Shown: positions 6,498 through 41,377 of the stretch, in pieces
How the letters are laid out: each line of letters begins with the position of its first letter
Numbering within the stretch: position 1 is the stretch's first letter
Source: an uncultured Gammaproteobacteria bacterium
GTDB taxonomy: Bacteria; Pseudomonadota; Gammaproteobacteria; JACCXJ01
DNA: 64,000 nt
Direction of reading: 5' to 3'
Assembly: GCA_963764725.1 (NCBI GenBank)
Contig: CAVXTM010000012.1
Location: 342,213 to 406,212, forward strand
Position numbers and translations under genes: made by a program
The notes under the pieces: model-generated
Told to the model about the DNA's origin: nothing
Seen by the model: only the letters and a program-made list of their open reading frames with translations
Database searches by the model: none

Positions 6498-6519
6498 CCG
6501 GCATCATATAGGCCGACAG

Positions 6520-7206: not shown

Positions 7207-8309
7207 GCCAAGGACGCTCGTTGAATGCTGGGTTTGTGAGCTAGGCTTCCAGTGGCATCGTCTTGGACCCCGGGGGAGGTGTGCGGCGCCCTTCGCGCCT
7301 CGGCCAGGCAGATCTTCATTTGTTCGGCCAGCGGCCCGACATAAGGATCTTGAAACAGTTCGACATGCATGCCTGGGACCAGGCGATGGGTTGCTTGCGC
7401 GGCAAGCCGGGACCAGGCGTTTTGAATTTCGCGGCGCCGCACCTCGTCCATATCGTCGGCCGCCCAGATAAACCAGATCTTGCCGGCATAGGCTCTCGGC
7501 ACATAGTTCTTTTTCGCGCGCCGATGCGAATCAATAGTATAGCGCGACAAAAGACCGCGCGACAAAGGCAGTCTGCACGCCAGGAAAATAGGAAGCGCGA
7601 TTCTCCTACAGAGGACGTTCAACCCGTACCACACACGCGCCCACACATAGGCGAGCTGCTCGATGACATTTTTATTGACCAGGCTGCGTAAATGCCTTTC
7701 GACACGGTTGCGAGAACGATCGCGTGCCATTGGCGTCTTCGGCGGTGGGGGATCGATCAACACCAGCGCCGCGATCTCTTCGCCTTGGGCGAGCAACTGC
7801 TGCGCCATTTCCAGCGCGATCAGCGTCGACACGCAGTCACTGCTCAAATAATAAGGTCCGTGCGGCTGTACCTTGCGCAGGTGAGTCAGATTAAAAGCGG
7901 CCATTTCTTCAATGCGCGTCATGCGCATCTGCCTCGGGTCCCAGTGAGAGCTGATTCCGTACAGACGCTGATCAGGCCCGAGGCAGCGGCACAACTCGCG
8001 CAGCATCAGTTGCGATGCCCAGCCATACACTGAATAGCGGCGGGGTCGTGCCGTGGGGGTTGAGCGGCACGATCACATCCGAGTCATTGAGAGAATCTCC
8101 CGCCGCCAGGATTCGGCCGATCTGTTCTACGGTCGGTGCCTGGAACAGCGTCGCGACCGACAAACGCCGGCCGCAAGTCTTTTCGATTTCGGCCAACACG
8201 CGCAACACCAGAAACGAATGCCCGCCGAGATCGAAGAAGTTGTCGCGTATGCCAACCTGGTCGAGCTTTAGTACCGAGGCGAAGATCGCGGCGAGTTGCT
8301 GCTCGAGCG
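7178..8309. repeat. Direct repeat copy 1 (T-TE coding region plus first codons of the PPTase)
   Basis: Near-identical to 21175-22305; roughly a dozen substitutions and one 1-nt indel seen by eye. Confidence 0.95.
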
Positions 8310-21174: not shown

Positions 21175-22305
21175 ACTCGATCCGCCGCAATGCGAAGCCT
21201 CACGCCAAGGACGCTCGTTGAATGCTGGGTTTGTGAGCTAGGCTTCCAGTGGCATTGTCTTGGGCCCCGGGGGAGGTGTGCGGCGCCCTTCGCGCCTCGG
21301 CCAGGCAGATCTTCATTTGTTCGGCCAGCGGCCCGACATAAGGATCTTGAAACAGTTCGACATGCATGCCTGGGACCATGCGATGGGTTGCTTGCGCGGC
21401 AAGCCGGGACCAGGCGTTTTGAATTTCGCGGCGCCGCACCTCGTCCATATCGTCGGCCGCCCAGATAAACCAGATCTTGCCGGCATAGGCTCTCGGCACA
21501 TAGTTCTTTTTCGCGCGCCGATGCGAATCAATAGTATAGCGCGACAAAAGACCGCGCGACAAAGGCAGTCTGCACGCCAGGAAAATAGGAAGCGCGATTC
21601 TCCTACAGAGGACGTTCAACCCGTACCACACACGCGCCCACACATAGGCGAGCTGCTCGATGACATTTTTATTGACCAGGCTGCGTAAATGCCTTTCGAC
21701 ACGGTTGCGAGAACGATCGCGTGCCATTGGCGTCTTCGGCGGTGGGGGATCGATCAACACCAGCGCCGCGATCTCTTCGCCTTGGGCGAGCAACTGCTGC
21801 GCCATTTCCAGCGCGATCAGCGTCGACACGCAGTCACTGCTCAAATAATAAGGCCCGTGCGGCTGTACCTTGCGCAGGTGAGTCAGATTAAAAGCGGCCA
21901 TTTCTTCAATGCGCGTCATGCGCATCTGCGTCGGGTCCCAGTGAGAGCTGATTCCGTACAGACGCTGATCAGGCCCGAGGCAGCGGCACAACTCCCTCAA
22001 CTCGGTGGCGATGCCCAGCCATACACTGAATAGCGGCGGGGTCGTGCCGTGGGGGTTGAGCGGCACGATCACATCCGAGTCATTGAGAGAATCTCCCGCC
22101 GCCAGGATTCGGCCGATCTGTTCCACGGTCGGTGCCTGAAACAGCGTCGCGACCGACAAACGCCGGCCGCAAGCCTTTTCGATTTCGGCCAACACGCGCA
22201 ACACCAGAAACGAATGCCCGCCGAGATCGAAGAAGTTGTCGCGTATGCCAACCTGGTCGAGCTTTAGTACCGAGGCGAAGATCGCGGCGAGTTGCTGCTC
22301 GAGCG
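21175..22305. repeat. Direct repeat copy 2 (T-TE)
   Basis: Offset 13,997/13,996 nt from copy 1; in frame here. Confidence 0.95.
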
Positions 22306-25300: not shown

Positions 25301-25378
25301 TTTTTGCCTGAGCTTCGCTTCGAAAAGCGCACGCGCTTCGGGAGGAAGATTAGCGATGCGATTGACAAGGTCGTTCAT
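21200..25378 (-). CDS. NRPS termination module C-A(Thr)-T-TE
   Basis: C (SFAQQRLWFL, HHIISDGWS); A code DFWNIGMVHK (Thr-type); T (GGHSF); TE (GPYYLSSDCVS, VLID, PGMH). Confidence 0.93.
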   Translation of the reverse strand: MNDLVNRIANLPPEARALFEAKLRQKTRANKHTIPTLPRSGEAPAFAQSFAQQRLWFLCQWEPHSAFYNISSALKLEGELDVAAFERCINEIVKRHESLRTSFTTQENEAVQIIHPSADAKVSFVDLRGFSPSERDAEMRRLAAEESERPFDLSRAPLIRVLLLQLEDTRHVTLTTLHHIISDGWSIGVFYREVAALYQALANSKAVSLPELPIQYPDYAVWQRGHLSEEVLKPQLAYWKKQLSGAPPLLELPTDRPRPALQSFKGARLNRMLDNALLDAVKTVGQADRATLFMTLLAAFSVLLSRYCRSDDIVIGSPIAGRTRTETEHLIGFFVNTLTLRTDLSGDPSFREYLSRVREMALSAYSHQDLPFEKLVEELKPERSLSYSPLFQVMFALQNTTQVPLLLPGLEVERMDLGRETSRFDLTLYAIETSEGLKISVEYSSDLFDAATIVRMVGHFETLLKSIVKNPEKKISRLALLPDAERHALIHDWNQTRIDYPKDKTIVELFEQQVEKTPDNIALVFEGRKLSYRELNACANQLSHQLISLGVGPEALVGLCVERSIEMVVALLAILKAGGAYLPLDPDYPEERLAFMLEDAKIPVLLTQRNLEERLPAHHAKLVFVDAFEHDFENYPDSDPESALKPDNLAYVIYTSGSTGRPKGVLVTHGNVTRLLAATEVWFDFQASDVWTLFHSYAFDFSTWEIWGALLYGGRLVVVPYWVSRSPEAFYDLLVQQRVSVLNQTPSAFRPLIDVEQSARRKALALRYVIFGGEPLELHSLKPWIDVHSDARPRLINMYGITETTVHVTYRPLARADIEASKGSLIGVPIPDLELYILDPYLQPVPIGIAGELYVGGAGLARGYLNRPELTAERFIAHPFSSEPGARLYKTGDLARYLPERDIEYLGRIDHQVKIRGFRIELGEIEAMLSQHADVKEAVVIAREDSSGDKRLVAYVVGASSTTALSGADLRKYLKERLPDYMLPLAFVVLDEMPLTPNGKLDRKALPKPDSARSDAAVYAAPRTPLEQQLAAIFASVLKLDQVGIRDNFFDLGGHSFLVLRVLAEIEKACGRRLSVATLFQAPTVEQIGRILAAGDSLNDSDVIVPLNPHGTTPPLFSVWLGIATELRELCRCLGPDQRLYGISSHWDPTQMRMTRIEEMAAFNLTHLRKVQPHGPYYLSSDCVSTLIALEMAQQLLAQGEEIAALVLIDPPPPKTPMARDRSRNRVERHLRSLVNKNVIEQLAYVWARVWYGLNVLCRRIALPIFLACRLPLSRGLLSRYTIDSHRRAKKNYVPRAYAGKIWFIWAADDMDEVRRREIQNAWSRLAAQATHRMVPGMHVELFQDPYVGPLAEQMKICLAEARRAPHTSPGAQDNATGSLAHKPSIQRASLA

Positions 25379-25786: not shown

Positions 25787-27795
25787 TCACGATCGCCCCT
25801 CGAGATTTTGCGCCTGCGATCCCTCTCCTTGCGCCTCGGTAAGAAGCTGCGCCAGCTCATCGTCACTGAGCGCTTCGGCCTGCTTTCGCACGATTAACGC
25901 CGACATGCCTGCCACGGTAGGCGACTCGAACACAGCGCGCAGCGGGATGTCGGCGTCCAAGGTCTTTTTCACGCGCGAAATGACCTGTGTCGCCAGCAGC
26001 GAATCTCCGCCCAACCGGAAAAAATCATCGTGTATGCCGACCCGCGCCAAGTTCAGCACTTCAGCGAAAATGTCCGCGATAAGCTGCTCATTCGGCGTCC
26101 GTGGAGCGATATGTTCGAGGCGGTTCTGTCAGGATCGGGCGCCGGCAAAGCCTGGCGATCGACTTTGCCGTTGCGAGTCAGCGGCAAAGCAGAGAGGGGC
26201 ACATAAGCGGCCGGTACCATGTAGTGCGGCAATTTCTCGCCGAGGAAGGCGCGCAAATCGTCGGTGGAGGGCAACGCCTCTCCCGTCAGATAAGCAACCA
26301 GCCTTTTCTCGTCGGGTTTATCTTCGCGCGTCGAGACCACGGCTTGCCGCACGGCCGGGTGCGATCTCAACGCCGCTTCGATCTCGCCGGGTTCGATTCG
26401 AAAGCCGCGAATCTTCACCTGGTCATCGGTTCGCCCGAGAAACTCGATGTCGCCGGTTGTAAGATAGCGAGCCCGGTCGCCTGTTTTGTACAGTCGCCCC
26501 GCCGAGCCGGCCGCATAGGGATCGGCGATGAAGCGATCGGCGGTCTGCTCCGGCTCATTAATGTAGCCGCGCGCAACCCCGGCGCCGCCGATGTAGAGTT
26601 CTCCGGGTTCCCCTATAGCTACGGGCTGCAGGTCTTCACCGAGAATATAAGCGCGCGTATTCGCGATCGGCCGACCGATTGGGACGGTTGCGCAGCGATC
26701 GGTGCGGGAGCCGTGGTCCACATCGAGAGTCAACGCGCCTATTGTCGTTTCAGTGGGTCCATAGTGATTGATGATTCGGCAGGCAGCGCCGGTCTGCTCG
26801 ATGCGGCGGACGAGTTGCCAAGGCAAAGCCTCGCCGCCGAATATCAGGTACTTTCCTGGCAGGATGTCGTTTCCATCGCCTCCATCGCGCGATGCAAGCA
26901 AGGCGGCAAAGTGAGACGGTACGATTTTCAGCACATCGATCGGATGCCTCGAGAAATAGTCCGCCAACCTGTCCGCATCGGTGACCGTCTCATAGTCAAG
27001 AATATGCAGACAACCGCCGGAAATGAGGCTAGTGAAAATGCAGGTATTGCCCAGATCGGCGGTCAGCGTCGTCACCGTCGCAAAGTGAAAAGGAGCGATT
27101 TTCTGCAACTGCAGCCTGGTACGTATGAAGTGAGCATAGTTGACGATATTGGAATGGGTGATGGCCACGCCTTTCGGATTGCCGGTGGAGCCCGAAGTGA
27201 AGATGATGTAGGCGAGGTGGTTTGCGGCAACCTCGGCTTCGGGATTTTCGGTGGACTCGCTTTCACCCGACTCGCGATCGAGGTACAACACGCGGCCGCC
27301 GAAATCCGGTAAATCACTGAACAGCTTCTCCTGAGTCAACAAGATCGAAGCCTTGACTTGCTCAAGTTGCCGCGCCAACCGGCTTTTCGGGTATTCCGGA
27401 TTCAGAGGGACATACGCGCCTCCCGCCTTCAATATGCCGAGCAGCCCTACCAGCATGGCGGAAGAGCGATCGGTGCACAGACCGACCGGTATATCCGCAG
27501 TCACGCCCAAACCTTGCAGATGATGAGCGAGTTTGTTGGCTTTGGCGTTTAACTCTGCGTAACACCACCGTCCGTCGCCGCAAACGAGCGCGATCGCGCC
27601 GGGCGTCTTTTCAACCTGCGCTTCGAACAATTGATGGAGGCATCTATCGCGCGGAAAGTCCGCTTCGGTCGCATTCCATTCAACGAGCAAGCGATGGCGC
27701 TCGGCTTCAGTCAATATCGATCCTGAAAGCTGCTGCTCACAGTTGCGTGGATCCGATTTCGGTGCGGAAGAATCGCCGACGCAAACGTCATTCAT
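25787..27795 (-). CDS. NRPS A(Asp)-T didomain, frameshifted at ~26120-26135 (ORFs 26053..27795 and 25787..26059)
   Basis: A code DLTKIGHIGK (Asp-type). After PAPDPD the frame shifts to ...HIAPRTPNEQLIADIFAEVLNLARVGIHDDFFRLGGDSLL. GAAGGGAG RBS before ATG 27795. Confidence 0.85.
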
Positions 27796-28081: not shown

Positions 28082-29377
28082 GGGCACTTCGATAAATTCG
28101 TTTCCAGTGGTAGCTAACCGTTAAATAACCAAGGATGATTAAAGTCGGGTAAGTGGTGTTTTGTACACGGCTACCGCTTGCCTTATAGGATGCCGTTTAC
28201 CATCGCTGCTTTAGGTTGCGTGGGCAAGCCGATTTCCTGGCTTGCGTCGCTCCAGTTGCAGATAGCGCATGATGTTGTAGGTGAGGTTCATCAGCGCGAT
28301 CATGGTCTTGGCCCTAGCCAGTCCTATGGTGCGGATGAGTTTGCCGCCCATGGAGTTATGCTGAAAGCCAAAGACATGCTCGACCCGGGCGCGGATGGTG
28401 GAGCGCAGGCGGTTGAGGCGCTTTTTGTGCGCACTCAGCGGTTTGCCCCGCTGGCCTTTGTAGTGGATCTGGCTCTTGAAGCCAGCCTCCCCAAGCCGCT
28501 GTTCGGTTTCCTCGGACCGATAGGCACTGTCGGCCCAGACAGAGGCTCCGGTGTTGGCTTCATCGAGCACCTCCGCTAAGAGCTGGCTATCGTGGATGGC
28601 GGCATCGGTGACGGTAAAGTTGCGGATGAGCTTGTGCTTGTTGTCCACGTTGATGTGGTTCTTGTACCCAAAGTAGCTCTTGCCGTGTTTCTTGGTCCAA
28701 CGGACGTCGGTGTCCTTCTGCCGGCGCATCGCGGGGTTGTTTTCCCAGTCCTCAGGCAGCTCGCCGCCTTTGATCGCCGCATTCTCTTCCCGAGTATTCC
28801 TCTGGCGGGGCACCGGCACGATGCTGGCATCGATGATCTGCCCGGCTTTTGCCTGATAGCCGCGCTCGCTGAGATAGGCATTGAAGCGCTCAAAGAGCCC
28901 CTCCAAGAGGCCTTGCTCGGCCAACACCTGCCTATAGGCCCACAGCGTGGTGGCATCGGGCACGTTGTCCTGCAGGTTGAGCCCGAGAAAGCGCATGAAC
29001 GACATCCGTCTTTGATTTGATACTCCATCTGCTGATCGGAGATGTTATACAGACTCTGCAACACTAACGCCTTGAACATCATCACCGGGTCCAAAGGCTT
29101 GCGACCGGCGGGTGATTTACGCTCCTTCTCATGGATCTTGGCGCATAGCGGACGAAATTCCTCCCACGGGACCGACTCCTTGAGCACCACCAACGGGTCA
29201 CCCATCGCGTCCAGTGCGTCATAGCGCTCCTCTACATCAAACAACCCCGGTTGCCCCATGATCATCTCCCCTTGCTGCTCTTATGGATGAGGGCCCATAT
29301 TCTAACACGAGTTATATATCCGATCAGCTACTAAAAGCTATACTAAGGCCCGAGTCGAGGAATTAATCGAAGTGCCC
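28082..29377 (-). mobile_element. IS5-family element; transposase frameshifted at ~29005
   Basis: TIRs GGGCACTTCGATAAATTC / GAATTAATCGAAGTGCCC (17/18). ORF pieces 28576..29265 (N-term) and 28211..29005 (IIDASIV, FGYKNH, ADSAY, RARVEHVF). TSD ambiguous. Confidence 0.9.
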
Positions 29378-29471
29378 TATATGGTGGGCTCCTGTTTCAA
29401 CGCACTTTCTCTCCCGGTCTATCGCTGTCGGAACGGGATTCAAGTGACGATCGAGAACATGGATCCGAGTG

Positions 29472-31722
29472 TTAAATCACCCCCGGCAAAGCCGGGGGCT
29501 TATTGGGTGAGCGCCTCAAAGGCGCCATAACAGCATGAGCCGCCCAAGGCGGCGGGTCTACATTCCAAGCTTCATCTGCTCGTAGCGCTCGTCTTCTTCC
29601 TCTTGGTTGCGGATATAGGCTCGGACCATGTTTTCCTCCAAACCCACGGTGGAGACGAAGTAACCGCGTGCCCAAAAGTTCTCGCCGGTGAAATTGCGCT
29701 GTCGACCACCAAACGTCTTGGCTATCTGAATGGCACTCTTCCCCTTGATGTACCCGACCACATTCGCCACCGCATACTTCGGCGGAATACTCAGACACAC
29801 ATGCACGTGATCCCCCATCAGGTGCCCTTCGACAATCTTCGATTCCTTGTGCCTCGCTAGCTCGTGGAATATCTCCCGCAACTGTCGTCGCAGCACCCCG
29901 AAAATCTGCTTCCTCCTTCGCTTCGGTATAAACCTTCCAGTTGCATAAATTTCTGCGGTTAACCGCAAAAAATGGCGTGAAGGCGGGGGGTTCGTCGAGT
30001 TTTGCGTTGTCCTCTGGATTTCACCAGGGGTGAAATCCAGCGATTCAGTTAAAGAGGCTGATCTTGCGATCAGCTAAGTAGAAGAAGCGGTCTGCACGTT
30101 GCGGTATAATATGTTTGCTAAAACAAAACGATCCGCAAAGGAGACCGCTCCCGTGAAGTGTAGCAGAACCGATGTTCACTGCAAGACCCACAGCCTTCCA
30201 GTACTCCGATTCGAAGAGAGCCAACTCACTTCGTTCTCGGGCTTGGTCCTTATCCAAGAGCTCTTTCGCCGTCTGGATCTCAAGGAGCGGTTACGCCGGT
30301 GTTTTGAGCATCTTGTTGTCAGTCCCATCTTTGGGCACGCCACCGTTGTGCTCTCTCTGGTGCTGCACCTGCTGATGGGGTTTCGGGAATTGCGCGATAT
30401 TCGGTATTATGCCGATGACCCGTTGGTCCGACGCACTCTGGGCCTGCGCCGGCTGCCCGACGTGGCCACCCTCAGTCGGGCCTTGGCACAGGCCGACCCG
30501 AAGAGTGTCGAGCAGCTGCACCGCCTGCTGCGCGAGTTGGTGGTGGCTCGGCTGGCGAAGCTTGATCTCCCACGGGTCACCTTGGAGGCTCGGTCATCGG
30601 TACTGGAAGATTCGCCGAGGGGACGGCCGTGGGATTCAACCGTAAGAAGAAAGGACAGCGCAGTTATTACCCGTTGTTTTGCACGGTGGCCCAAACCGGG
30701 CAAGTGCTCGATGTGCTGCACCGCTCCGGTAATGTCCATGACTCCCATGGCGCGCAGGCCTTTATCCGCGACTCTATCGCCACCGTGCGTTCGGCCCTCC
30801 CCGGGGTCTGCATCGAGGTACGCGTGGATAGCGCCTTCTTCAGTGACGCGATCATCACGAGCCTCGATGCCCAGGGCGTTGAGTATACGGTCAGCGTCCC
30901 CTTCGAGCGCTTCGGAGAACTCAAAGAACGCATTGAAGCGCGTCGATGGTGGCATCGGATCGAGGCGGGATGCGCCTACTTTGAGGCGCAGTGGAAGCCC
31001 AAGGCTTGGAATGTTCGCCATCGCTTCCTCTTCATTCGCACTCGGGTCAAACAGCAACACAAAGACCCCGTGCAGCTCGATCTCTTTATCCCCCAAGCCT
31101 ATGGCTACGAGTTCAAGGTTATCCTCACCAACAAGCCCCTCCGCGCCCGCAAGGTGCTCGCCTTCCATAACGGGCGGGGCAGCCAGGAGGGTATCTTCGC
31201 CGAGCTCAAATCCGACAACCAGCTCGACTATGTCCCCACGCGTACTTGGGTCGGCAATCAGATCTACCTGCTCTCAGTCCTCCTGGCTCACAACTTCGGC
31301 CGAGAGCTGCAAATGATCGCCCATCCTCCTTCGCGTACTACCCTTGAGAAGCGCCCGGCGTTTTGGGACTTCGCACGCCTTGACACCCTGCGGCGTCGCC
31401 TTATTCAGCGTGCAGGCCGTTTGATCCGGCCGCAGGGACAGCTCACGCTCAGTATGGCTGTAAACCCAGTCGTTCGCGACGAGCTGTTGCATTACCTGGA
31501 GACTTTGAAAGCCGCATGAGTTCGCCAAACAACCGGATTTTTTGCAACGCTAGGGTAAACACTACGTGATATTTGCAGTCCCATCTCGTATGACTCAAAC
31601 TCTGATATTCTTTCATCTGTGAATCCCCTTCTCTTGGCGGAGATCGGAGATTCACACCGACCGTAGTACAGGTCAAACCACGGTGAGTCCCCCGGCAAAG
31701 CCGGGGGCTTACCTCACTGAGT
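29472..31722 (-). mobile_element. tnpA: IS200/IS605-family element (tnpA only), interrupted by IS1380
   Basis: Subterminal hairpins CCCCCGGCAAAGCCGGGGG at 29480-29498 and 31689-31707. N-term MKEYQSLSHTRWDCKYHVVF (31616-31557) joins IPKRRRK...DHVH (HUH)...WARGYFVSTVG (to 29558). Exact ends approximate. Confidence 0.9.
29933..31555 (+). mobile_element. IS1380-family element; transposase disrupted near 30585
   Basis: 4-bp TSD TAAA (29929-29932, 31556-31559); imperfect TIRs CCTTCCAGTTGCATAAAT / rc CCCTAGCGTTGCAAAAAA. LTSFSGL...; after VTL a frameshift/small deletion, then GFNRKKKGQRSYYPL, RVDSAF, RGSQEGIFAELK. Confidence 0.88.
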
Positions 31723-31723
31723 T

Positions 31724-31777
31724 ACTCGCAAACTGCGTTCATCTCGGATACGGCGAATCGGGATTCACGCGAACGTT
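31724..31777. repeat. ~55-bp copy of the 3' end of the ThDP-enzyme gene (37750-37803)
   Basis: ACTCGCAAAYTGCRTTCATCTCGGATACGGCGAATCGGGATTCACGCGRACGTT at both sites. Confidence 0.85.
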
Positions 31778-31779
31778 TA

Positions 31780-32050
31780 TACCGCCAGACGGCAAAATCG
31801 GCATATTGGATCGCAAGCCTGGGGAGCGGCGACTCGTGGCCTGTCCGATAGGCGCGGTGGCGCTTTACGATTTCGTTCAAGCTCCACGTCAACGCGGCGA
31901 CGTCAAGCGGACCTCGTAGATGCACGACATTGGCGATGTTGTAGGAGCCACTCCCCGCTGCCTGGTGGCCGTTTTCCGCCTGAGCTTCGCTTCGAAAAGC
32001 GCACGCGCTTCCGGAGAAAGATTGGCGATATGCTCCTTGAAATCGTTCAT
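31780..32050 (-). pseudogene. Internally deleted relic of an NRPS C-domain gene
   Basis: ATGA overlap with the upstream NRPS. MNDFKEHIANLSPEARALFEAKLRRK (cf. MNDLVNRIANLPPEARALFEAKLRQK at 25378), then out-of-frame patches SYNIANVVHLRGPLDVAAL...EIVKRH and PLPRLAIQYADFAVW. Confidence 0.8.
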
Positions 32051-35000
32051 TCTCGCAATGCTTGTTCTTGGGCATCGGTAAGAAGCTGCGCTAGCTCATC
32101 GTCACTGAGCGCTTCGGCCTGCTTTCGCAAGATTAACGCCGACAGGCCGGCCACGGTAGGCGACTCGAACAGGGCGCGCAGCGGAATGTCGAGCTCGAAG
32201 GTCTTTTTCACGCGCGAAACGACCTGCGTTGCAAGCAGCGAATGACCGCCGAGATCAAAAAAGTTGTCGTGAATGCCAACCCGGTCGCGCTGCAGCACCT
32301 CCGCCCAGATGGCGGCGAGCGTTTCTTCATTGGCCGTGCGCGCTGCAACGAAAGACTCAATCGATCGCGTGTTGTCCGACGCCGGCAGCGCTTTGCGGTC
32401 AACCTTGCCATTAGCCGTGAGTGGCAGCGAATCAAGAAACACGAAAGCCGAGGGCACTGCAGGCGCAGGTAGTTTAGAGCTCAGGAAGGCTCGAAGTTGG
32501 GAGGTGTTAACCTCGCGTTTGGCGACGACATACGCGGCCAGAAAAATCTCGCCTCGATCGTCCTTGCGCGCCATGACAAAGCACGCTTCCAGCGCTTCGT
32601 GCTGGGCGAGGAGCGCGCCGGCTTCACCCGGTTCGACGCGCACGCCGTTGATCTTGACCTGATCGTCGAGCCGGCCTTCCATCATCAGCGCTCCATCGGG
32701 ACGGTAGCGCCCGCGATCTCCGGTCAAATACAGCAGATCCTGCTCGTCATCGCGAAACGGATTCCTGATGAAACGTTTTTGGTTCTCGTCAAGCGCGTTG
32801 ATATACCCCAGAGTGCGAAACGGAGTTCGGATCGCGATCTCGCCGGGCTCGCCGATTCCGCATCGTTGGTTGCCTGTCCTCATGACCAGCACCTGGGTCT
32901 GCGGGAGCGGACGGCCCACTGGCTGTATGCCCAACGGCTCTTCGTCTATGACCCGGTGGAAACACTTGGCCATCGTCGTCTCCGTCGGACCGTAAAGATT
33001 GACGATGGCGCCGGTGTGCGAGAACGCCCTGCGCCAGCGCTCGATGAGTGTGTCCTGCAGCGGCTCTCCCGAGAAGAAAACCCAGCGCAAATCGGAAAGC
33101 GAGAGATCGTGCGGCACATCCGCGAGCCACGATTGCGCGAGCGCCGGAACGGTGTGCAACACGCTGATTCGCTCACGCACGAGCCACGGCAGAATGTAAC
33201 CCGGCGCCAAACCTTCGGCTTCGTCCGGCAGGTGCAAACTTGCGCCGCTGGTCAACGGCAGGAAAACATCGCGCAGTAACACGTCGAACGACAGCGCTGT
33301 CAGTTGCGCGACCCGATCATCCGGACCGATTGCGAACGTCTCGCGCTGCCACGCGAGAAAATGACTCAAGCTCTTATGCGATCCTAAAATTCCCTTGGGC
33401 ACGCCGGTCGTTCCCGAAGTAAAGAAGATGTAAGCGGGATCGTCTGGCGCCAGCTTTGGTAGACCGCTCGCCCCGCGATCTATAGTGGCAAGCGGATGCA
33501 CTGGAAGCGCACCGCCCGCATCGATCTCGATGATCGTTGCAGCATCCAGCTCGCGGATCCACGCATCTTCGCGTTGGAAATCGCCGATATAAAGAATCTG
33601 TTTGGCGCCCGTTTCGCGCACCAGCAGCCGCTGCCGCTCGGCCGGAAATCGGCGATCGACCGTCAGCATCACCCCGCCGCTCAACAAGACTGCAACCATA
33701 CAGGCGATCAAGCCGAAGCTTTTGGGACCGCTGATCGCGACAACATCCGAGCGTTTTAGTCCATGTGCGCGCATCTCCGATGCGATCGCCTGCGCCGCCT
33801 GCCAAAGCTCACCGTAGCTCAACGCTTTCCCGTCGTGATAAAGCGCAGTCTTGGCGGGGGTACGGTGCGCCCAATCGGCGATGGCGTCGGCCGTCAATCC
33901 ATGGAGCGGCTCATGAATTTGCACCGACGGATCAGGCAGCAGCACGCGCGATGCCGGGTCCACAAGCGAATACGCAAGCAGCGGCCGCGCTGGGTCTGCG
34001 CAAATCTGCTCGAGCAAAGTGCAGTAGTGGCCGATCAGACGGCTTATCGTCTCCGCCGCGAACAAGTTGGTGTTGTACTCGATGACGAGCTTGAATGCCT
34101 CATCGCTCTCGATAAAGGTGAAACTCAAGTCGAATTTGGCGCTATCGCGCTCGAATTCAAAAGGAACGATCTCGAGCCCTGATAAATTCAATTCGCCCCA
34201 GCCTCGGTGATGCAGCACGACCAGCACCTGGAACAGCGGCGGATAGCTCAGGCTGCGTTGGGGCTTCAGTTCTTCGACGAGTTTCTCGAACGGCAGGTCC
34301 TGGTGCGCATACGCTTCGACCGCGCTCGCGCGCACGCGCGCCAGAAGTTCGAGGAAGGTCGGGTCGCCCGAGCAATCGGTGCGCAGAACGAGGGTATTGA
34401 CGAAAAGCCCGATTAGGTTTTCAGTGCTCGTGTGAGTGCGGCCGGCGATCGGCGAACCGACGACGGTGTCGTCGCTGCGCGCATAGCGTGCCAGCAAGAG
34501 CTTCACGACCGAGAGCAGTGCCATGAACAACGTCGCGCCCTTAGCCCGCGCCAGTGCGCGCAAGTCTGAGATCAAACGCTTCGGCAGCAGCCTGGTTCGG
34601 CGCGCGCCATTGAAGGTTTGAGCTGCAGGGCGCGGATAGTCGGTCGGTAATTCGAGAAGCGGCGGCGCACCGGCCAAGTAATTCTTCCAATGGGTGACCT
34701 GCTGGTCCAGCACTTCGCCTCTTAACCGCTCCCGCTCCGAGATCGCGTAATGCGCGTACTGCATCGGAAGCTCCGCGAGTGGAGATGGTGCACCTTCGGC
34801 ATAGGCTTGGTATAGCGCGCCCAGCTCGCGATAAAGGATGCTCATCGACCAGCCGTCGGAGACGATATGATGAAGGTTGACGATCAGCACGTGGTGGCCG
34901 GGAGCGAGGCGCAGCAGGCTCGCGCGCAGCAAGGGCGCGCGCGCCAGATCGAACGCGCTGCCTGCTTCCTCGGTTGCCAGACGCATGGCCTCGATTTCAC

Positions 35001-35406
35001 GCGTGGCCGGCGCGAAATGCGTCAGGTCGATGATGGGTAGCGCAAAGGGGACGCTGTCATGAATGGTCTGAACGGGCTCGTCATCAACTGCGGCGAAGCT
35101 GGCACGCAGCACGTCATGGCGCCGCAGGATTTCCACGAAGCATCGTTCCAGAGCGCCCGCATCGAGCGCCCCTTTCACGCTGAAGGCGTCGGGTATGTTG
35201 TAAAACGGACTGCCGGGCTCCAACTGGTGGAGGAACCACATGCGCTGCTGCGCGAAGGACAAGCAGTTCGGATCCCTCTCAGCTTTTTCCGAGACGATGG
35301 GCGTTTTTGCTGTTCTAATTCCTGCGCGCAGCCAGCGATCGAGCAGCGTCTGCTTGATCGACGTGAGCTCGGTGCGCTGCACCGGAAGATTCTCTCGTTC
35401 GGACAC
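32047..35406 (-). CDS. NRPS elongation module C-A-T with an atypical A-domain code
   Basis: C (HHIVSDGWS); A (FTSGTTGVPKG; code read DVRHFSLMAK); T (GGHSLL); acidic C-terminal helix. Confidence 0.92.
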   Translation of the reverse strand: MSERENLPVQRTELTSIKQTLLDRWLRAGIRTAKTPIVSEKAERDPNCLSFAQQRMWFLHQLEPGSPFYNIPDAFSVKGALDAGALERCFVEILRRHDVLRASFAAVDDEPVQTIHDSVPFALPIIDLTHFAPATREIEAMRLATEEAGSAFDLARAPLLRASLLRLAPGHHVLIVNLHHIVSDGWSMSILYRELGALYQAYAEGAPSPLAELPMQYAHYAISERERLRGEVLDQQVTHWKNYLAGAPPLLELPTDYPRPAAQTFNGARRTRLLPKRLISDLRALARAKGATLFMALLSVVKLLLARYARSDDTVVGSPIAGRTHTSTENLIGLFVNTLVLRTDCSGDPTFLELLARVRASAVEAYAHQDLPFEKLVEELKPQRSLSYPPLFQVLVVLHHRGWGELNLSGLEIVPFEFERDSAKFDLSFTFIESDEAFKLVIEYNTNLFAAETISRLIGHYCTLLEQICADPARPLLAYSLVDPASRVLLPDPSVQIHEPLHGLTADAIADWAHRTPAKTALYHDGKALSYGELWQAAQAIASEMRAHGLKRSDVVAISGPKSFGLIACMVAVLLSGGVMLTVDRRFPAERQRLLVRETGAKQILYIGDFQREDAWIRELDAATIIEIDAGGALPVHPLATIDRGASGLPKLAPDDPAYIFFTSGTTGVPKGILGSHKSLSHFLAWQRETFAIGPDDRVAQLTALSFDVLLRDVFLPLTSGASLHLPDEAEGLAPGYILPWLVRERISVLHTVPALAQSWLADVPHDLSLSDLRWVFFSGEPLQDTLIERWRRAFSHTGAIVNLYGPTETTMAKCFHRVIDEEPLGIQPVGRPLPQTQVLVMRTGNQRCGIGEPGEIAIRTPFRTLGYINALDENQKRFIRNPFRDDEQDLLYLTGDRGRYRPDGALMMEGRLDDQVKINGVRVEPGEAGALLAQHEALEACFVMARKDDRGEIFLAAYVVAKREVNTSQLRAFLSSKLPAPAVPSAFVFLDSLPLTANGKVDRKALPASDNTRSIESFVAARTANEETLAAIWAEVLQRDRVGIHDNFFDLGGHSLLATQVVSRVKKTFELDIPLRALFESPTVAGLSALILRKQAEALSDDELAQLLTDAQEQALRE

Positions 35407-35408
35407 TT

Positions 35409-37574
35409 TCAGGCTTCCTTTTGCATGCTGTTCATCAGCGTTGTTGATCCGCGCTTTGCGCCCGCGTCGACATCGTTTTGCAGCAGAGACTCCGCCTCAC
35501 GCTCGGATAGTCCCTGGAGTTTTTCGATCAGCGTTTCTTCGATGACTTCGGCAAGCTTGGCAATCGTCGAACATTCGAGAAGAATGCGGCCTAGCGGTAT
35601 TTCGACCGGGAAAGCATCGCGCAGCCGACCCCAAATCTGCATGGCTTTCAGCGAATCGCCGCCGCGATCCAAGAAGTCGTCGTGAATTCCGATCTGCCTC
35701 ACATCCAGTGCCTGTTCCCAAATTTCGGCCAGCCAAGACTCCAGTTCGGTGCGCGGCGCAACGCGGGCCGCGCTGGCCTCGCGCGCCGCAATAGTTTTCA
35801 AGATCTCGTTGAAATCACCAGCGGCGAGCCCGGTCTTTAGTTGCGTGCGCTGGATTTTGCCGCTGGTTGTCTTGGGAAATGCCGCTTTTGCGATTGGAAC
35901 AAAGTAGCGTGGGTTCACACCCAGCTCGCGAGCGACGTTGGCGCGGATGTTCTTGATCACTTCAAGCTGCCGCTCGATGCCTTCGTGCCGGCACGAGAAA
36001 AAAATCGCCAGCTCTTCGGTGCCGGCGCGAGCATCCGCGATGCCGCAAGCAGCGGCATAGGTAGATACAACGCCTTCGGTCCGATTGACGATATCTTCGA
36101 TCTCGTGACTGTAATAATTGACGCCGTAGAGAACGATCATCTCCTTTTCTCTGCCGGTGATGGTCAGGCGGTGATCGAGGATGAAACCGAGATCGCCGGT
36201 GTTGAACCAGCCGTCGCCAACGAACGCCTCCTGATTGGCAGCAGCATTGTTCAAATAGCCGGGCGTTACGATATCGCCTTCGATCTGCAAACGGCCGATG
36301 ACGGCTTCGGGCAGCACGCGGCCGTGCTTATCGACGATTCGAATCCGTACGCCCGGAATCGGCGGTCCGAGATCGATGAAATCGATCGCGTTCTGGTCGC
36401 CGTCGCTGGCCCTGACCAGCTTGCCGCCGAGCGACGATTTCCTGAAACGATGAACGCCGGTTACGAAATCGAAATGGTTCTGGTACGTTATGCAGGTGGC
36501 GACTTCGGCCATGCCGAAGGCCGGCTGCATGACGCGCGGCGGAACGTTAAAGCAGGCAAGCGACCGCAACAACGCGTGCACGACCAACAGCGTGACCTGC
36601 TCGCCCGCGTTCATGAAATACTTGAGTGACGAAAGCCGCCAGGTCCTGTTTCCGGATCTTGCCAATGCGTCGCTGAGTAGTTTGTAGCCGAAATTCGGCG
36701 ACCACGAATGCGTGACCCGATGCCGGTCGATCAAATCGAGCCAGGTCAGCGGATCCTCGAGGATCGAAGCCGGCGGAGCCTGGATCTGCTGAATGCCGAG
36801 GTAGACATCCTTGACGTGAAAGGTCAGCAAAGGGACGACGTGGTCCATGGCAAGCCAGTTGAGCGTAACGTCGTCCGGCCCATACCCATTGAACTGCCGT
36901 GAGGCTTGGATATGAGAAATGACAGCGCGATGCGTTTCCTTAATGCATTTCGGCATCGCGGTGCTGCCCGAGCTCAACTGTAAAAATGCTGTATCGTCGG
37001 GGCTTACCGGCGCTGTCGATTGCACAGGCGGATGAGCGCGCAGCGCGGAGACGGACAGCAGCTTCGGCCGGTCGGCCTGCGCGACACCCGCAATCCGAGA
37101 CAGCGGCGCCATCAGGCTTTCGCTGGCAATGATGGACGGACGACCTAGCGATTTCCAGGCGTTCAGCATTTTCAGGACGACGCTGTTTTCCACGTCGTAC
37201 GTGGGAGCAACCGCGACGCTGACCGGCGTGATCCCTCCCAGGATGCACGCCCAGAAGGCGGGGAAAAAATCCTGCAGCGATTCTATCTGCAGAATCGCCC
37301 GGTCTTTGGCTACCAAGCCCTCACTGTACAAACCGCTGAGTAAGCGTCTTGCATCTTGCAGAAGCGCCGGATAGCTCTGGAACACTTCAGACCCATTGAA
37401 TTGAACGTGCACGATGCCTTTAGCCGGCTCGTTCGCGCTCGTCCTGAGCAGGGCTTCGGAAAGCGTTTTAGGCATGCCGTCTTCCGAAACTAATGGGCCG
37501 CCGTCGCTGAAGGCGGCGGGCTCATCCGGTACCACTCCGAACTCTTCAACCACTCGCATTGTTCTTCCGGCCAT
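35409..37574 (-). CDS. Fatty acyl-AMP ligase-like adenylation enzyme fused to ACP
   Basis: FLQLSSGSTAMPK, WSPNFGY, PAFGMAE followed by an insertion, TGDLGF, PKTTSGKIQR, ACP GGDSL. Confidence 0.8.
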   Translation of the reverse strand: MAGRTMRVVEEFGVVPDEPAAFSDGGPLVSEDGMPKTLSEALLRTSANEPAKGIVHVQFNGSEVFQSYPALLQDARRLLSGLYSEGLVAKDRAILQIESLQDFFPAFWACILGGITPVSVAVAPTYDVENSVVLKMLNAWKSLGRPSIIASESLMAPLSRIAGVAQADRPKLLSVSALRAHPPVQSTAPVSPDDTAFLQLSSGSTAMPKCIKETHRAVISHIQASRQFNGYGPDDVTLNWLAMDHVVPLLTFHVKDVYLGIQQIQAPPASILEDPLTWLDLIDRHRVTHSWSPNFGYKLLSDALARSGNRTWRLSSLKYFMNAGEQVTLLVVHALLRSLACFNVPPRVMQPAFGMAEVATCITYQNHFDFVTGVHRFRKSSLGGKLVRASDGDQNAIDFIDLGPPIPGVRIRIVDKHGRVLPEAVIGRLQIEGDIVTPGYLNNAAANQEAFVGDGWFNTGDLGFILDHRLTITGREKEMIVLYGVNYYSHEIEDIVNRTEGVVSTYAAACGIADARAGTEELAIFFSCRHEGIERQLEVIKNIRANVARELGVNPRYFVPIAKAAFPKTTSGKIQRTQLKTGLAAGDFNEILKTIAAREASAARVAPRTELESWLAEIWEQALDVRQIGIHDDFLDRGGDSLKAMQIWGRLRDAFPVEIPLGRILLECSTIAKLAEVIEETLIEKLQGLSEREAESLLQNDVDAGAKRGSTTLMNSMQKEA

Positions 37575-37764: not shown

Positions 37765-39483
37765 TCATCTCGGATACGGCGAATCGGGATTCACGCGGAC
37801 GTTGATGCACGCCGCCAGGCCCGATGCCGCGGCACGCGCTAGTGCGGGTTTGATCTGTTCCGCCCGATCGACGTATTCGCCGTGCCCGCCAAAAGCCCGC
37901 ATCATCTGGTCGTAATGAATGTCCGGCGCGAACATGGTGACGCGATCGGGATAATCTTCCGCATAGAACATTTTTTCGTTGGCCGTGCCCCCGTTGCCGT
38001 CGTTATTCGCCACCACGATAATCACTGGAACGCGCAGTCTGACCGCGGTCTCCATTTCCATCGCGCTGAGACCAAAAGCAAAGTCGCCGCAGATCGCGAT
38101 TACCATGCGCGTCGGCAAAGCCAGTTTGGCAGCGATTCCGAATGGGACGCCGACACCCATGCAGCCGTTATTGCCCGCTGTTAATCGCGAAACCGGAAGA
38201 TAGCTCGGCAAGAGATGCTGCGCCGCGGCCAGTATGATGTTCCCATCAATGACGCAGATCGCATCACGCGGAATGAAATCGCGGATTTCGGCGATCAAAC
38301 GAAGCGGTGAAATCGGGCCACCCTGTTTCGCCAGCGTTTCCCATTTGGCAGCGCTTTCATCGCGTTTCTGATCGAGAGGCACACGCCAGGAAAGATGAGG
38401 CGCAGCCGCCTCGCGTGTGTTCCGCACGCGATCGATTTCCTTCACCAAGCGCCGCAACACCTGCTTGATGTCACCGACGATGGCGACTTCCGGCGTAACG
38501 TTGGCCCCGATCTCGTTTTCGTGAATCGCGATCTGAACCAGTTTTGCATCGCGCGCGATTTCGGCGCCGAAGCGGAAGGTCCAGTCGAGTCTTGCACCGA
38601 TGAGCAAAACGGCATTCGCCGCGGAAAGCAGATACGATCGTGCATTGCTATAACATCGCGGATGATCGTCAGGCACGTAGCCCCGTCCCATAGGCGAAGC
38701 CGCGAACGGGGCATCCAGATAATCCACCAACTGATTAAGCTCGGCATACGGCTCGGACCAGCGAATCGCTTCACCGATAACGATTGCCGGGCGCGTCGCT
38801 TGCGCCAGCAGCTCAGCCGCGCGGCGGATCGCATCTTCATCGAACTGGCGCGCCATCGGCGTAAGACGCTGGGGTCGGCACAGCGCTATGTCCTTCTGAT
38901 TCAGAATTTCCTCCACCAAATCCAAATATACCGGTCCTGGCCGACCGCCTGTGGCGACTTCAACTGCGTTTTCAAGGGCCGGGCAGATGGCGCCGGCGGA
39001 TTTCACCGTTCCGCAAAACTTGGTGATCGATTGAAAAATCGGGATCGCATCGAGGTACTGGAAGCCCCCCATTGCATGCATGACCTCTGCGCGCCTGGCA
39101 CCCAACGCGACCAGCGGCCAACCGTTGTCGCGTGCAACCAGGATCGCGGTCGTAAGATTGGTGATTGCCGGGCCGCTCGAAACGAGCGCCACTGCGCTCA
39201 CCCGGCCTTCGATATAGTTCTGTGCGGCTGCCATCAGACCTGCTGCCTGTTGGTGCCGCACGCCGATCACCCGAATGCCGTTTTTGGCACACGCGGAGAG
39301 TGTTTCGTGAATCGGGATGCCGGCGACGCCATAAACATGGTTGATGCCGAGTTCTTGCAGGCTGAACGCGATCAAGGCATGGCCATCGGCCTCCCGGCCT
39401 TGCAATGTTTGCACGCGCTTACCGGGCCCGGCGGCGCTCATCCGATTGTCTCCGCCATTATCTGTCGCCCTCGCGCGTTTCAT
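37765..39483 (-). CDS. ThDP-dependent enzyme of the oxalyl-CoA decarboxylase / 2-hydroxyacyl-CoA lyase family
   Basis: YGVAGIPI, GRPGPVYLDL, PMGRGYVPDDHP, RLTAGNNGCMGVG, GDFAFGLSAMEMET...NN (OXC-like GDSAFGFSGME). Canonical RHEQ reads RHQQ. Confidence 0.85.
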   Translation of the reverse strand: MKRARATDNGGDNRMSAAGPGKRVQTLQGREADGHALIAFSLQELGINHVYGVAGIPIHETLSACAKNGIRVIGVRHQQAAGLMAAAQNYIEGRVSAVALVSSGPAITNLTTAILVARDNGWPLVALGARRAEVMHAMGGFQYLDAIPIFQSITKFCGTVKSAGAICPALENAVEVATGGRPGPVYLDLVEEILNQKDIALCRPQRLTPMARQFDEDAIRRAAELLAQATRPAIVIGEAIRWSEPYAELNQLVDYLDAPFAASPMGRGYVPDDHPRCYSNARSYLLSAANAVLLIGARLDWTFRFGAEIARDAKLVQIAIHENEIGANVTPEVAIVGDIKQVLRRLVKEIDRVRNTREAAAPHLSWRVPLDQKRDESAAKWETLAKQGGPISPLRLIAEIRDFIPRDAICVIDGNIILAAAQHLLPSYLPVSRLTAGNNGCMGVGVPFGIAAKLALPTRMVIAICGDFAFGLSAMEMETAVRLRVPVIIVVANNDGNGGTANEKMFYAEDYPDRVTMFAPDIHYDQMMRAFGGHGEYVDRAEQIKPALARAAASGLAACINVRVNPDSPYPR

Positions 39484-41377
39484 CCGCGAGCAGTTGCTCG
39501 ATCTCGGCGTCGCTGAGATTTTCCAGCCCAGCCGGAATTTCCTCGGCGTTGCCGATCAATCCGCCGATCTCGCCGGCGAGCTCGGCGACCGTCGGTTTCC
39601 GAAACACGGCGACGTTGGGCAGATCGACACCGAAGACTGCGAAAACGCGCACCATGACTTGCGTGGCTCGCAGCGAATCGCCGCCCAAAGCGAAAAAGTT
39701 GTCATCGATTCCGAAGCCGTCGATCTTCAGGACTTCGGCAAAAACCTTTGCCACGGCGTGTTCTATTTCATTTCTCGGCGCAACCGGTGCTGGCTGTAGA
39801 AATTCGCCCAGTTTGTCGGCGAGGCCAATGCGTTGCAATTTTCCGGTCGGGCCTTTCGGAATCGCAGGCACGATGACGACTTGACTGGGGATCTTGAAGT
39901 CGGTTAGGCGCTCGAACAAGAATTCGCGGATAGCATTCGGCTCCATCGAATTTTTCTCCTTCAGCACCACGGCCGCGGCGATATCCTCGCCGAGGGTCGG
40001 GTGCGGCAGCGCGAAGGCGACCGCCTGCGCCACCGCTGGATGTTCGAGCAACGCTTCATCGACTTCGCGCGGAGAAATTTTTTCGCCCCCGCGATTGATG
40101 ATTTCCTTCAGCCGTCCGGTTAGGAACAGATAGCCGGCGGCGTCGAGATAGCCCTGATCACCGGTGCGAAACCACCCATTGCTGAAGCTCGCGCGATTGG
40201 CGGGCGCGTTATTTTCGTAACCCGGTGTCACGTTGGCGCCGCGAATCACGACCTCACCGCTTTGCTCTTGCGGGAGCTGCGCTCCCGCAGCGTCCATGAT
40301 TGCGATTTCCGGACCTGCTGCGACACCGACCGAGCGCGGCTTACGCTGCGCTGGAGGCAAGGGATTGCTCGCCATCTGATGCGCGGCTTCGGTCATACCG
40401 TAGGATTCGATGACCGGCACCCCGAAAAGCCGTTCGAGCTCCGTCATCACCGGTGCTGGCAGCGCAGCTGACGACGAACGGATGAAGCGCAGACGATGAT
40501 CCGCGATGACGTCGGCGTGTTCTTTGGCGCGCGCCAGGACCGCCTGATGGATGGTCGGCACCGCCGTATACCAGCTTGGGCTAAATTCGGACATCCACTC
40601 GAAAAATCCCCAGTCATAAAAATCGGGCGCACACACAACGCGTGCGCCGGCCGCGAGCGACGACAGCAAAGCCGCAACGAGCCCGTGAATGTGAAACAAG
40701 GGCATCACGTTCAGGCAGCAATCGTCCGGGGAAAGCCGCAGCGTGCGGCTAATGTTGAACGCCGATGCGCAGAGATTCTTGTGCAGCAGGGGTACGAGCT
40801 TAGGCCGCGAGGTCGTGCCCGAGGTGTGCAGCAGCAAAGCGACATCCTCGCCTTGCGCTGGCCTCGAATCGACGGCTTGTCCCGCACGACCATGCAATGA
40901 GAAAACCCCGGCCCGAGCGTCGCCCGTGGGCGCGAGTTCGATCACCTCAATCCCCCGCGAGCGCGCCACGGCGCATGCCGCAGAATCACTGCCGGCCTCG
41001 ACGATCAGTGCTTTGACCCCCAAGTCGGACAGGTAAAAATCGAATTCCTCGACGCGGTAGTGGGGATTCAGAGGCGCGCAGACCGCGCCGCCGGCAACGG
41101 CGAGAAATGCCACCGCCATCTCGGGCCCGTTCGGCAGCACGAGCGCGATGCGATCGCCGTGGCCCAGACCGCACTCCCTCAAAGCAGCTTGCGCACAACC
41201 AATATGAGCCGCCAAGGCTCGGTAGCTAAGCCACGTCCTCTCCGGCGCCGCCAGTGCTGGTCTACCGGGAAATTTTGTCGCGAGGCTGTGCAGCAACTCG
41301 GGCAGTGTTACCGCCAATCCGTGGGTTGATGTGTTATTCACACATTTCTCTCCTCTCTTTGACACCACCGTGCCCAC
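39458..41377 (-). CDS. Oxalate-CoA-ligase-like (AAE3/Pcs60-type) adenylation enzyme fused to a C-terminal carrier domain
   Basis: LHTSGTTSRPKLVPL, PLFHIHGL, WYTAVPTIHQ, RFIRSSSAAL, ESYGMTEAAHQMASNPLPP, INRGGEKISPREVD, PKGPTGKLQR; then T domain FFALGGDSLRA. Confidence 0.8.
   Translation of the reverse strand: MGTVVSKRGEKCVNNTSTHGLAVTLPELLHSLATKFPGRPALAAPERTWLSYRALAAHIGCAQAALRECGLGHGDRIALVLPNGPEMAVAFLAVAGGAVCAPLNPHYRVEEFDFYLSDLGVKALIVEAGSDSAACAVARSRGIEVIELAPTGDARAGVFSLHGRAGQAVDSRPAQGEDVALLLHTSGTTSRPKLVPLLHKNLCASAFNISRTLRLSPDDCCLNVMPLFHIHGLVAALLSSLAAGARVVCAPDFYDWGFFEWMSEFSPSWYTAVPTIHQAVLARAKEHADVIADHRLRFIRSSSAALPAPVMTELERLFGVPVIESYGMTEAAHQMASNPLPPAQRKPRSVGVAAGPEIAIMDAAGAQLPQEQSGEVVIRGANVTPGYENNAPANRASFSNGWFRTGDQGYLDAAGYLFLTGRLKEIINRGGEKISPREVDEALLEHPAVAQAVAFALPHPTLGEDIAAAVVLKEKNSMEPNAIREFLFERLTDFKIPSQVVIVPAIPKGPTGKLQRIGLADKLGEFLQPAPVAPRNEIEHAVAKVFAEVLKIDGFGIDDNFFALGGDSLRATQVMVRVFAVFGVDLPNVAVFRKPTVAELAGEIGGLIGNAEEIPAGLENLSDAEIEQLLADETREGDR

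Follow-up and report, generated by a model that had tools for sequence, protein, structure and literature searches.

The window, a 64,000-nt stretch of contig CAVXTM010000012.1 (assembly GCA_963764725.1) from an uncultured Gammaproteobacteria bacterium, carries a nonribosomal peptide synthetase (NRPS) cluster with two unusual neighbouring genes. One encodes an AAE3/Pcs60-type ligase with a carrier (T) domain fused to it, here called ligase-T, and the other a thiamin diphosphate (ThDP) enzyme of the family of oxalyl-CoA decarboxylase (OXC) and 2-hydroxyacyl-CoA lyase (HACL). We propose, as a tentative reading with a probability of about 0.42, that this pair is an oxalate-primed NRPS initiation cassette ending in folate-independent N-formylation. 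The ligase would adenylate oxalate and load it on its own carrier as oxalyl-S-T, and the neighbouring ThDP enzyme would act on oxalyl-S-T instead of on a CoA ester. ThDP would add to the thioester carbonyl with expulsion of CO2, and the one-carbon (C1) intermediate would be protonated and released as formyl-S-T, from which the next condensation (C) domain would N-formylate the first amino acid without folate.

An oxalate-type ligase fused to a carrier domain

Both genes lie on the minus strand where the initial annotation had placed them (Table 1), and its description of the first product as an AAE3/Pcs60-like ligase fused to a T domain is borne out by Pfam, solved relatives and the oxalate pocket alike. 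Pfam matched AMP-binding (aa 33-387, E 7e-75), AMP-binding_C (438-513) and PP-binding (541-602). The top solved relatives were oxalate-CoA ligases, namely AtAAE3 (5ie0, 406 bits, E 3e-120), Lathyrus OCS (6qjz, 398 bits) and yeast Pcs60 (8aff, 360 bits), compared with about 207 bits for malonyl-CoA synthetases. As given in passages of PMC8905533, the oxalate pocket of AtAAE3 comprises V215-H216, C288-S289, A313-M314, H319 and K500, and S289 and H319 are described there as conserved in oxalyl-CoA synthetases only. Aligned to AtAAE3, the window ligase has I230-H231, S302-S303, G327-M328, H333 and K513, the last being the equivalent of the catalytic Lys500: all eight positions are kept or conservatively changed, the changes being V to I, C to S and A to G.

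This pocket is shared widely. We pooled loci, dropped rows with stops or matches shorter than 450 aa and removed two duplicate loci, which left 108 ligase homologues: 33 fused with a ThDP gene nearby, 27 fused without one and 48 free-standing. The equivalents of the oxalate-specific residues S303 and H333 were retained in all 108, and the signature I/V-H-S/C/A-S-G/A/S-M-H-K was the same in fused and free-standing bacterial forms. Ligase-T departs from the free-standing CoA ligases in its fused PP-binding domain; in a FastTree of the ligase domains, 45 of the 48 free-standing forms made one clade, apart from the fused forms. The GGDSL motif of the T domain (G565, G566, D567 and S568) was invariant in 12/12 ligase-T sequences. 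The T domain is followed by an acidic tail of about 37 residues with a partly conserved L-x-D-x-E pattern, a plausible docking element. An adenylating domain, a carrier with the phosphopantetheine serine, a downstream C-domain partner and a phosphopantetheinyl transferase (PPTase) gene are thus all present, as in an NRPS initiation module. Because the pocket is conserved and the T domain is fused, loading of oxalate onto the ligase's own carrier is the best-supported step, and adenylated oxalate is quite likely held there as oxalyl-S-T.

A ThDP clade that travels with ligase-T

The initial annotation had the ligase-T and ThDP genes overlapping. Their tight coupling holds with either possible start of the ThDP gene, and it is the 26-nt overlap that is doubtful. 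The overlap hinges on the first ATG at 39483; an internal in-frame ATG at 39441, 42 nt downstream, has GGAG about 8 nt ahead of it and lies about 15 nt past the ligase stop, and the first 25 or so residues of the open reading frame (ORF) are not conserved in the family. The ATG at 39441 is at least as likely to be the true start, and the overlap may not be real.

Is the pairing of the two genes conserved? Of 8000 candidates scored in a database search with the ThDP enzyme, 1430 were homologues at E 1e-30 or better; the best 120 of these 1430, all at least 51% identical, are referred to below as close homologues. A scan of genomes with the single protein found one locus only, and we used a profile of 38 close homologues (alignment A1), which brought up 59 loci in species genomes; 9 further loci came from a scan of metagenomes. 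Ligase-T adjoined the ThDP homologue on the same strand in 51 of 63 distinct loci (at least 35% identity, pooled with the loci derived from the ligase). Ligase-T is the upstream gene in 48 of these and the downstream one in 3, all three cyanobacterial, and the gap between the genes is about 92 nt at the median. The same arrangement was found in 8/9 metagenome loci. The 12 exceptions were five Dehalococcoidia, five Chloroflexia, locus L106 on a 3-kb contig and locus L130, where NRPS modules flank the ThDP gene and there is no ligase. In a quick IQ-TREE (51 rows, midpoint root; nine rows left out, of which three were distant, two truncated and four over-long ORF calls), 40 linked rows formed one group of 42 with L106 and L130, separated from the unlinked rows and E. 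coli OXC with an SH-aLRT of 100. The clade includes Gemmatimonadota, Acidobacteriota, Binatota, Chloroflexota, Nitrospirota, Verrucomicrobiota, Planctomycetota, Cyanobacteriota, Myxococcota and several classes of Pseudomonadota. Thus the initial annotation, which had named missing co-conservation of the ThDP enzyme as evidence against its idea and had suggested a search for similar pairs in other clusters, gains on both counts: ligase-T lies beside a ThDP gene of a separate clade, and the cassette recurs in many bacterial phyla.

In most cassette loci C-A-T modules (condensation, adenylation, carrier) come next. Across 43 loci with 105 neighbouring ORFs no other accessory family recurred; MbtH and PF02312 CBF_beta, with 4 members each, were the commonest, and the two genes therefore look self-sufficient. 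Single loci show other neighbours: a DAO-family FAD oxidoreductase lies directly upstream of ligase-T in L012 (8314-9846), a locus with no NRPS module within the flank, and in L094 a free-standing condensation domain (6497-7897) stands between ligase-T and the ThDP gene. The cassette is accessory and patchy in distribution. Its ThDP gene occurred in 1/8 same-genus genomes and in 0/32 other genomes searched, and in the 4.2-Mb genome of the window we found neither a second AAE3-like ligase nor a ThDP-family protein above the OXC cut-off. In the same-genus genome (G003, locus L097) the flanking SRAP gene is 92% and ligase-T 86% identical to those of the window; the ThDP enzyme is only 56% identical and is placed elsewhere on the tree. 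The cassette looks mosaic, as if the ThDP gene and what follows had been exchanged between lineages.

Pfam found TPP_enzyme_N, TPP_enzyme_M and TPP_enzyme_C in the ThDP enzyme. Its nearest solved relatives were HACL, HACS and OXC entries (8vzj, 6xn8 and 8vza-f, 289-297 bits); the OXCs of E. coli, O. formigenes and M. extorquens scored lower (226-239 bits) and glyoxylate carboligase was distant (136-139 bits). The enzyme missed the cut-offs of the OXC models TIGR03254 (315 vs 739 bits) and NF006721 (336 vs 557 bits), and it scored 274 bits against a cut-off of 600 with the only HACL model in NCBIfam, which is of the actinobacterial type and not of the RuHACL/HACS group. Its top NCBIfam match was PRK05858. 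Passages of PMC8760513 and PMC7154664 give as bacterial OXC markers a Tyr-Glu pair (Y120-E121 in OfOXC), a Tyr after NNGGI (Y483) and a lid Ser (S553), and as the HACL counterpart Phe-Gln. The window enzyme has Phe141-Gln142 in place of the OXC Tyr-Glu, reads NNDGNG with no Tyr at the post-NNGGI place and ends six residues after NVRVNP, so that it has no lid Ser. Phe-Gln was invariant in 38/38 sequences of A1 and in 119/119 close homologues. Three clade members from betaproteobacterial metagenome-assembled genomes (L107, L111 and L136) carry Phe-Met instead at the active-site floor. By its residues the enzyme is HACL-like, not OXC-like: the family named in the initial annotation stands, and the OXC-type decarboxylase does not. 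Phe-Gln alone does not exclude decarboxylation, because plant OXC, the partner of AAE3, also has this pair (Phe120-Gln121; passages of PMC9090294).

Three changes define the linked clade: (i) The C-terminal lid, judged by the alignment, is lost. Past the NVxVDP motif, the 45 linked members whose ends are complete have a tail with a median length of 7 aa (range 1-36) and nearly all of the 120 close homologues one of 5-8 aa, against 18-20 aa in the 8 unlinked relatives, E. coli OXC among them; (ii) at position 403 of E. coli OXC, Arg is present in 8/8 unlinked sequences, and Gln in 38/47 linked sequences and 119/120 close homologues (Gln422 in the window enzyme). In actinobacterial HACL, according to passages of PMC8760513, the lid residues D561 and K564 and several Arg hold the CoA moiety; and (iii) where E. 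coli OXC reads RHEQ, with the canonical cofactor-activating Glu at standard position 51, the window enzyme reads RHQQ and has Gln78. This position is Gln in 46/47 linked sequences (one has His), in 38/38 of A1 and in 118/118 close homologues with a residue there, and Glu in 13/13 unlinked sequences. The canonical Glu is described as conserved across the ThDP superfamily, glyoxylate carboligase (Val) being the only exception noted in the passages cited (PMC3534367). We also considered a catalytic role for a Glu aligned with RuHACL E477 and rejected it, as the position is Gln in most clade members (A1 consensus).

The cofactor motif GD...NN (G466, D467, N493 and N494) was invariant in A1, as were many active-site columns across phyla, and we therefore read the clade as active but mechanistically altered. 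Since adjacency to ligase-T is conserved, the clade is separate and putative CoA-holding elements are lost, the enzyme has rather likely been re-tooled to use a carrier-bound thioester and not a CoA ester. A complex prediction with the ThDP monomer (A1) and the ligase T domain (alignment A2, residues 528-615) gave a score of 0.00 (mark 0.32), which for an enzyme whose active site forms in the dimer speaks neither for nor against the pairing.

Possible fates of the loaded group

What becomes of the oxalyl group? The initial annotation had offered three outcomes: an N-oxalyl cap, a formyl thioester or carboligation. The oxalyl cap fits many clusters in which ligase-T has no ThDP partner; between formyl release and carboligation, sequence evidence cannot choose. 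We lean, with less than even confidence, towards protonation of the C1 intermediate to formyl-S-T as the most likely fate, because no acceptor-supplying gene recurs among the 105 ORFs beside the cassette and because HACL-type enzymes release a formyl thioester.

Several points weigh against a formylating cassette. Glu-to-Gln exchange at the canonical position strongly lowers activity in other ThDP enzymes, and the Gln of the clade therefore means that its enzyme could be slow or work differently. Every bacterial-OXC marker residue is absent. Passages of PMC7154664 report that human HACL, a Phe-Gln enzyme, decarboxylates oxalyl-CoA at less than 1 per min compared with 98 per s for OXC, and that removal of the OXC Tyr (the Y497A variant) favours carboligation over formyl release. 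A role in CoA binding for the arginine lost from the clade (R403 in E. coli OXC) is our inference. Four loci with enough flank (L012, L089, L110 and L121) have no NRPS module in the fetched flank. Finally, on a tree of 66 C domains (the first after ligase-T, the first after ligase-T plus ThDP enzyme, later ones and those of the window) the labels intermixed and no starter class emerged.

The chief alternative is decarboxylative carboligation, in which oxalyl-S-T would serve as C1 donor and join a metabolic aldehyde or ketone to give a 2-hydroxyacyl-S-T starter (glycolyl, lactyl or glyceryl). We regard it as unlikely. The active site is HACL/HACS-like with its invariant Phe141-Gln142, and it has neither the Tyr nor the Ser that favour protonation and release of formyl in OXC (OXC Y497A gains carboligation; passages of PMC7154664). 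Glyoxylate carboligase, the only natural ThDP family known from the cited passages of PMC3534367 to be without the canonical Glu, is itself a decarboxylating carboligase. Such a reaction would also be the natural counterpart of engineered cascades of oxalyl-CoA synthetase with OXC or HACS. However, the neighbours of the cassette include no recurrent gene that would supply an aldehyde, the linked clade is missing the lid that makes up part of the acceptor pocket in HACL/HACS, and HACL-type enzymes release formyl thioester in the lyase direction. In its fullest form, which we hold to be doubtful, the clade would have swapped CoA for an NRPS carrier, given up the ThDP-activating Glu and taken up C1 carboligation on the assembly line, making 2-hydroxyacyl starters from oxalate, or 2-oxoacyl starters if the acceptor were an acyl thioester such as that of the adjacent FAAL-T (fatty acyl-AMP ligase with carrier).

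A different substrate appears improbable. Glyoxylate, oxamate or malonate could be loaded and the ThDP enzyme act on that acid: the Lathyrus enzyme has measurable glyoxylate activity, three pocket positions differ conservatively from AtAAE3, and the window ligase stays below the cut-off of NCBIfam FadD7 (NF004511; 420.8 vs 650 bits). According to passages of PMC8905533, the Lathyrus enzyme prefers oxalate 61-fold over glyoxylate and about 10^4-fold over malonate, and its activity with glycolate and lactate was undetectable. Against another acid stand the equal pocket signature of free-standing bacterial and fused homologues and the retention of both oxalate-specific residues in every homologue.

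Could the oxalyl group be passed on unchanged? Where the ThDP gene is absent, this is probably what happens. In 27/60 fused ligases there is no ThDP gene within the fetched flanks, and most of these directly precede C-A-T or C-A-T-TE (with thioesterase); fused forms with and without a ThDP gene intermix on the ligase FastTree, with 12-14 label changes. Five genomes with ligase-T-only clusters have no clade member, the best ThDP match being 29-31% identical in four, with none at E 1e-40 in the fifth. By this distribution the ThDP step is optional, and since its gene is so often absent it seems that one and the same loaded group is used as it stands in some clusters and is first processed by the ThDP enzyme in others. 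Minimal clusters of ligase-T and a single C-A-T-TE protein without a ThDP gene occur in several phyla (L006, L009, L017, L036, L045 and others). The predicted products of such clusters are N-oxalyl amino acids, mimics of 2-oxoglutarate or glutamate. The further proposal, that an N-oxalyl cap is made even where the ThDP gene is present, with its product acting as an editing enzyme for mis-primed or stalled carriers or as a non-catalytic partner, draws on these ThDP-less clusters and on the replaced canonical Glu. We consider it more improbable still: across phyla there is no variation in the GD...NN motif, in Phe-Gln or in many active-site columns, which argues for catalysis, and a conserved gene placed after the loading module and before the first C domain looks on-pathway.

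An ordinary CoA-dependent oxalate-catabolism pair that merely sits beside an NRPS is very improbable: the cassette does recall plant and yeast AAE3 and OXC pairs and the adjacent fadD7 and oxcA genes of Mycobacterium tuberculosis, and its top NCBIfam matches are FadD7 and PRK05858, but the ligase is fused to a carrier domain, C-A-T modules follow the pair in most loci, the ThDP clade lacks the lid and the conserved Arg, no other such ligase was found in the genome and no ThDP-family protein there reaches the OXC cut-off, and the cassette is patchy.

Returning to the oxalate-primed cassette, CoA-dependent oxalate catabolism (AAE3, Lathyrus OCS, Pcs60 and M. extorquens OXS, with OXC) is nonetheless the closest known system. 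Its two enzymes belong to the families found in the cassette and come in the same order, the oxalate pocket is retained, and Phe-Gln is common to plant OXC and the cassette ThDP enzyme (passages of PMC9090294). The cassette differs in that its thiol acceptor is the fused carrier domain and not CoA, in that the pair is embedded in NRPS clusters, and in that its ThDP enzyme is without the lid, the conserved Arg and the canonical Glu. HACL1, RuHACL and HACS (6xn8 and the 8vz entries) are the closest solved relatives and share the Phe-Gln pair. In contrast to them, the cassette enzyme has Gln for the canonical Glu, a tail of about 7 aa (12-14 aa past the aligned end in 8vzj and 6xn8) and an oxalate-type ligase as partner, not a source of 2-hydroxyacyl-CoA. 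Glyoxylate carboligase is likewise a natural ThDP family without the canonical Glu and decarboxylates a C2 acid (passages of PMC3534367). That family has Val where the clade has Gln, and its substrate is free glyoxylate, with no thioester or carrier.

Two assembly-line systems come near to the proposed outcome. In the linear gramicidin synthetase LgrA and similar enzymes, an F domain formylates aminoacyl-S-T with N10-formyl-tetrahydrofolate; the cassette would arrive at the same N-formyl cap with a formyl thioester made from oxalate and transferred by a C domain. The glycolyl starter of quinocarcin and naphthyridinomycin is loaded on the ACP QncM by the ThDP enzyme QncN/L, which is transketolase/E1-like and uses a lipoyl relay and a sugar-phosphate donor. 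There too a ThDP enzyme gives a tiny acyl unit to a carrier for the NRPS start, whereas the OXC/HACL-family enzyme of the cassette would act on an already loaded oxalyl carrier.

To our knowledge, oxalate has not been known as a substrate of adenylation-carrier modules. In open-access papers and bioRxiv we found no description of an oxalate-activating NRPS module or of an OXC/HACL enzyme in an NRPS cluster, which is not proof of absence; the initial annotation, too, had recognised no characterised pathway with such logic, and we found none described in the same literature. If this reading holds, oxalate would prime NRPS lines in at least 10 phyla, mostly uncultured, and would be linked to peptide natural products capped with N-oxalyl, N-formyl or 2-hydroxyacyl groups. 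The ThDP clade would be the first in the OXC/HACL family shown to act on a carrier protein and the second natural ThDP lineage without the canonical Glu, which bears on the catalytic use of that residue. Should carboligation be the true outcome, the cassette would be nature's version of the engineered formyl-CoA and oxalyl-CoA one-carbon elongation cascades. Synthetic one-carbon assimilation relies chiefly on the OXC/HACL family, and a lid-less, carrier-directed natural variant would therefore be of practical interest.

Gene order in the window

Table 1. Features of the window, in order from the cassette through the biosynthetic cluster
Feature	Positions	Strand	Basis
Ligase-T (AAE3/Pcs60-type adenylation domain, T domain, C-terminal tail), 639 aa	39458-41377	-	Pfam, solved relatives, oxalate pocket
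ANL adenylation part of ligase-T, aa 33-513	39839-41281	-	Pfam and alignment
T (carrier) domain of ligase-T, aa 541-602, GGDSL Ser568	39572-39757	-	PP-binding E 1e-13
Acidic C-terminal tail of ligase-T, aa 603-639, possible docking element	39461-39571	-	Sequence, partly conserved L-x-D-x-E
ThDP enzyme, OXC/HACL family, ligase-T-linked clade, 572 aa	37765-39483 (or start ATG 39441)	-	Pfam, solved relatives
FAAL-T (fatty acyl-AMP ligase and carrier), second initiation module	35409-37574	-	Pfam AMP-binding, PP-binding; NCBIfam fatty acyl-AMP ligase/FadD-type matches all below cut-off
NRPS module C-A-T	32047-35406	-	Pfam Condensation, AMP-binding, PP-binding
Condensation-domain remnant, N-terminal fragment	31722-32075	-	Condensation 20.5 bits, below cut-off, profile positions 23-60
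Insertion-sequence nest in second NRPS module: DDE_Tnp_1_4 gene (two frames), IS200 Y1, DDE_Tnp_1	28211-31519
Remainder of interrupted module: A domain 26053-27795; T domain 25787-26059 in another frame	25787-27795	-
NRPS termination module C-A-T-TE	21200-25378	-
A-FkbM-type methyltransferase-T-sulfotransferase protein, 1267 aa	17148-20951	-
PKS/NRPS hybrid KS-AT-carrier-class III aminotransferase-methyltransferase-C-A-T, 3059 aa	7972-17151	-
Type II thioesterase	7203-8030	-
Sfp-type PPTase	6520-7206	-

The ligase-T and ThDP genes of the window are intact and full-length compared with their relatives. They are followed by FAAL-T and three NRPS modules, the second broken by insertion sequences (Table 1). 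Only in the window's lineage does FAAL-T separate the cassette from the first C domain. A metagenome contig (L146, 91-98% identical) has the same gene order, with FAAL-T 98% identical, and ends before the interrupted region. We saw no formyl-CoA transferase gene in the window, where no search was aimed at one.

In the second NRPS module a C-domain remnant is followed by transposase genes and then by an A domain and a T domain in differing frames. The assembly line is probably inactive in this genome, the alternative being that the frameshift is an assembly error; with the downstream line damaged by insertion sequences and a frame change, the product may not be made in this strain. When the N-terminal docking regions of the window's C-A-T and C-A-T-TE proteins were compared with those of post-cassette modules elsewhere, the C-A-T-TE type was the commoner, but it was also found on later modules; the post-cassette module of locus L087 has the C-A-T type.

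The two proteins encoded at 7972-20951 form an unusual megasynthase pair, which could belong to a separate pathway or close the same one. The gene next downstream of that for the PPTase, at 5076-6497, encodes a DUF4910/DUF2172/winged-helix protein.

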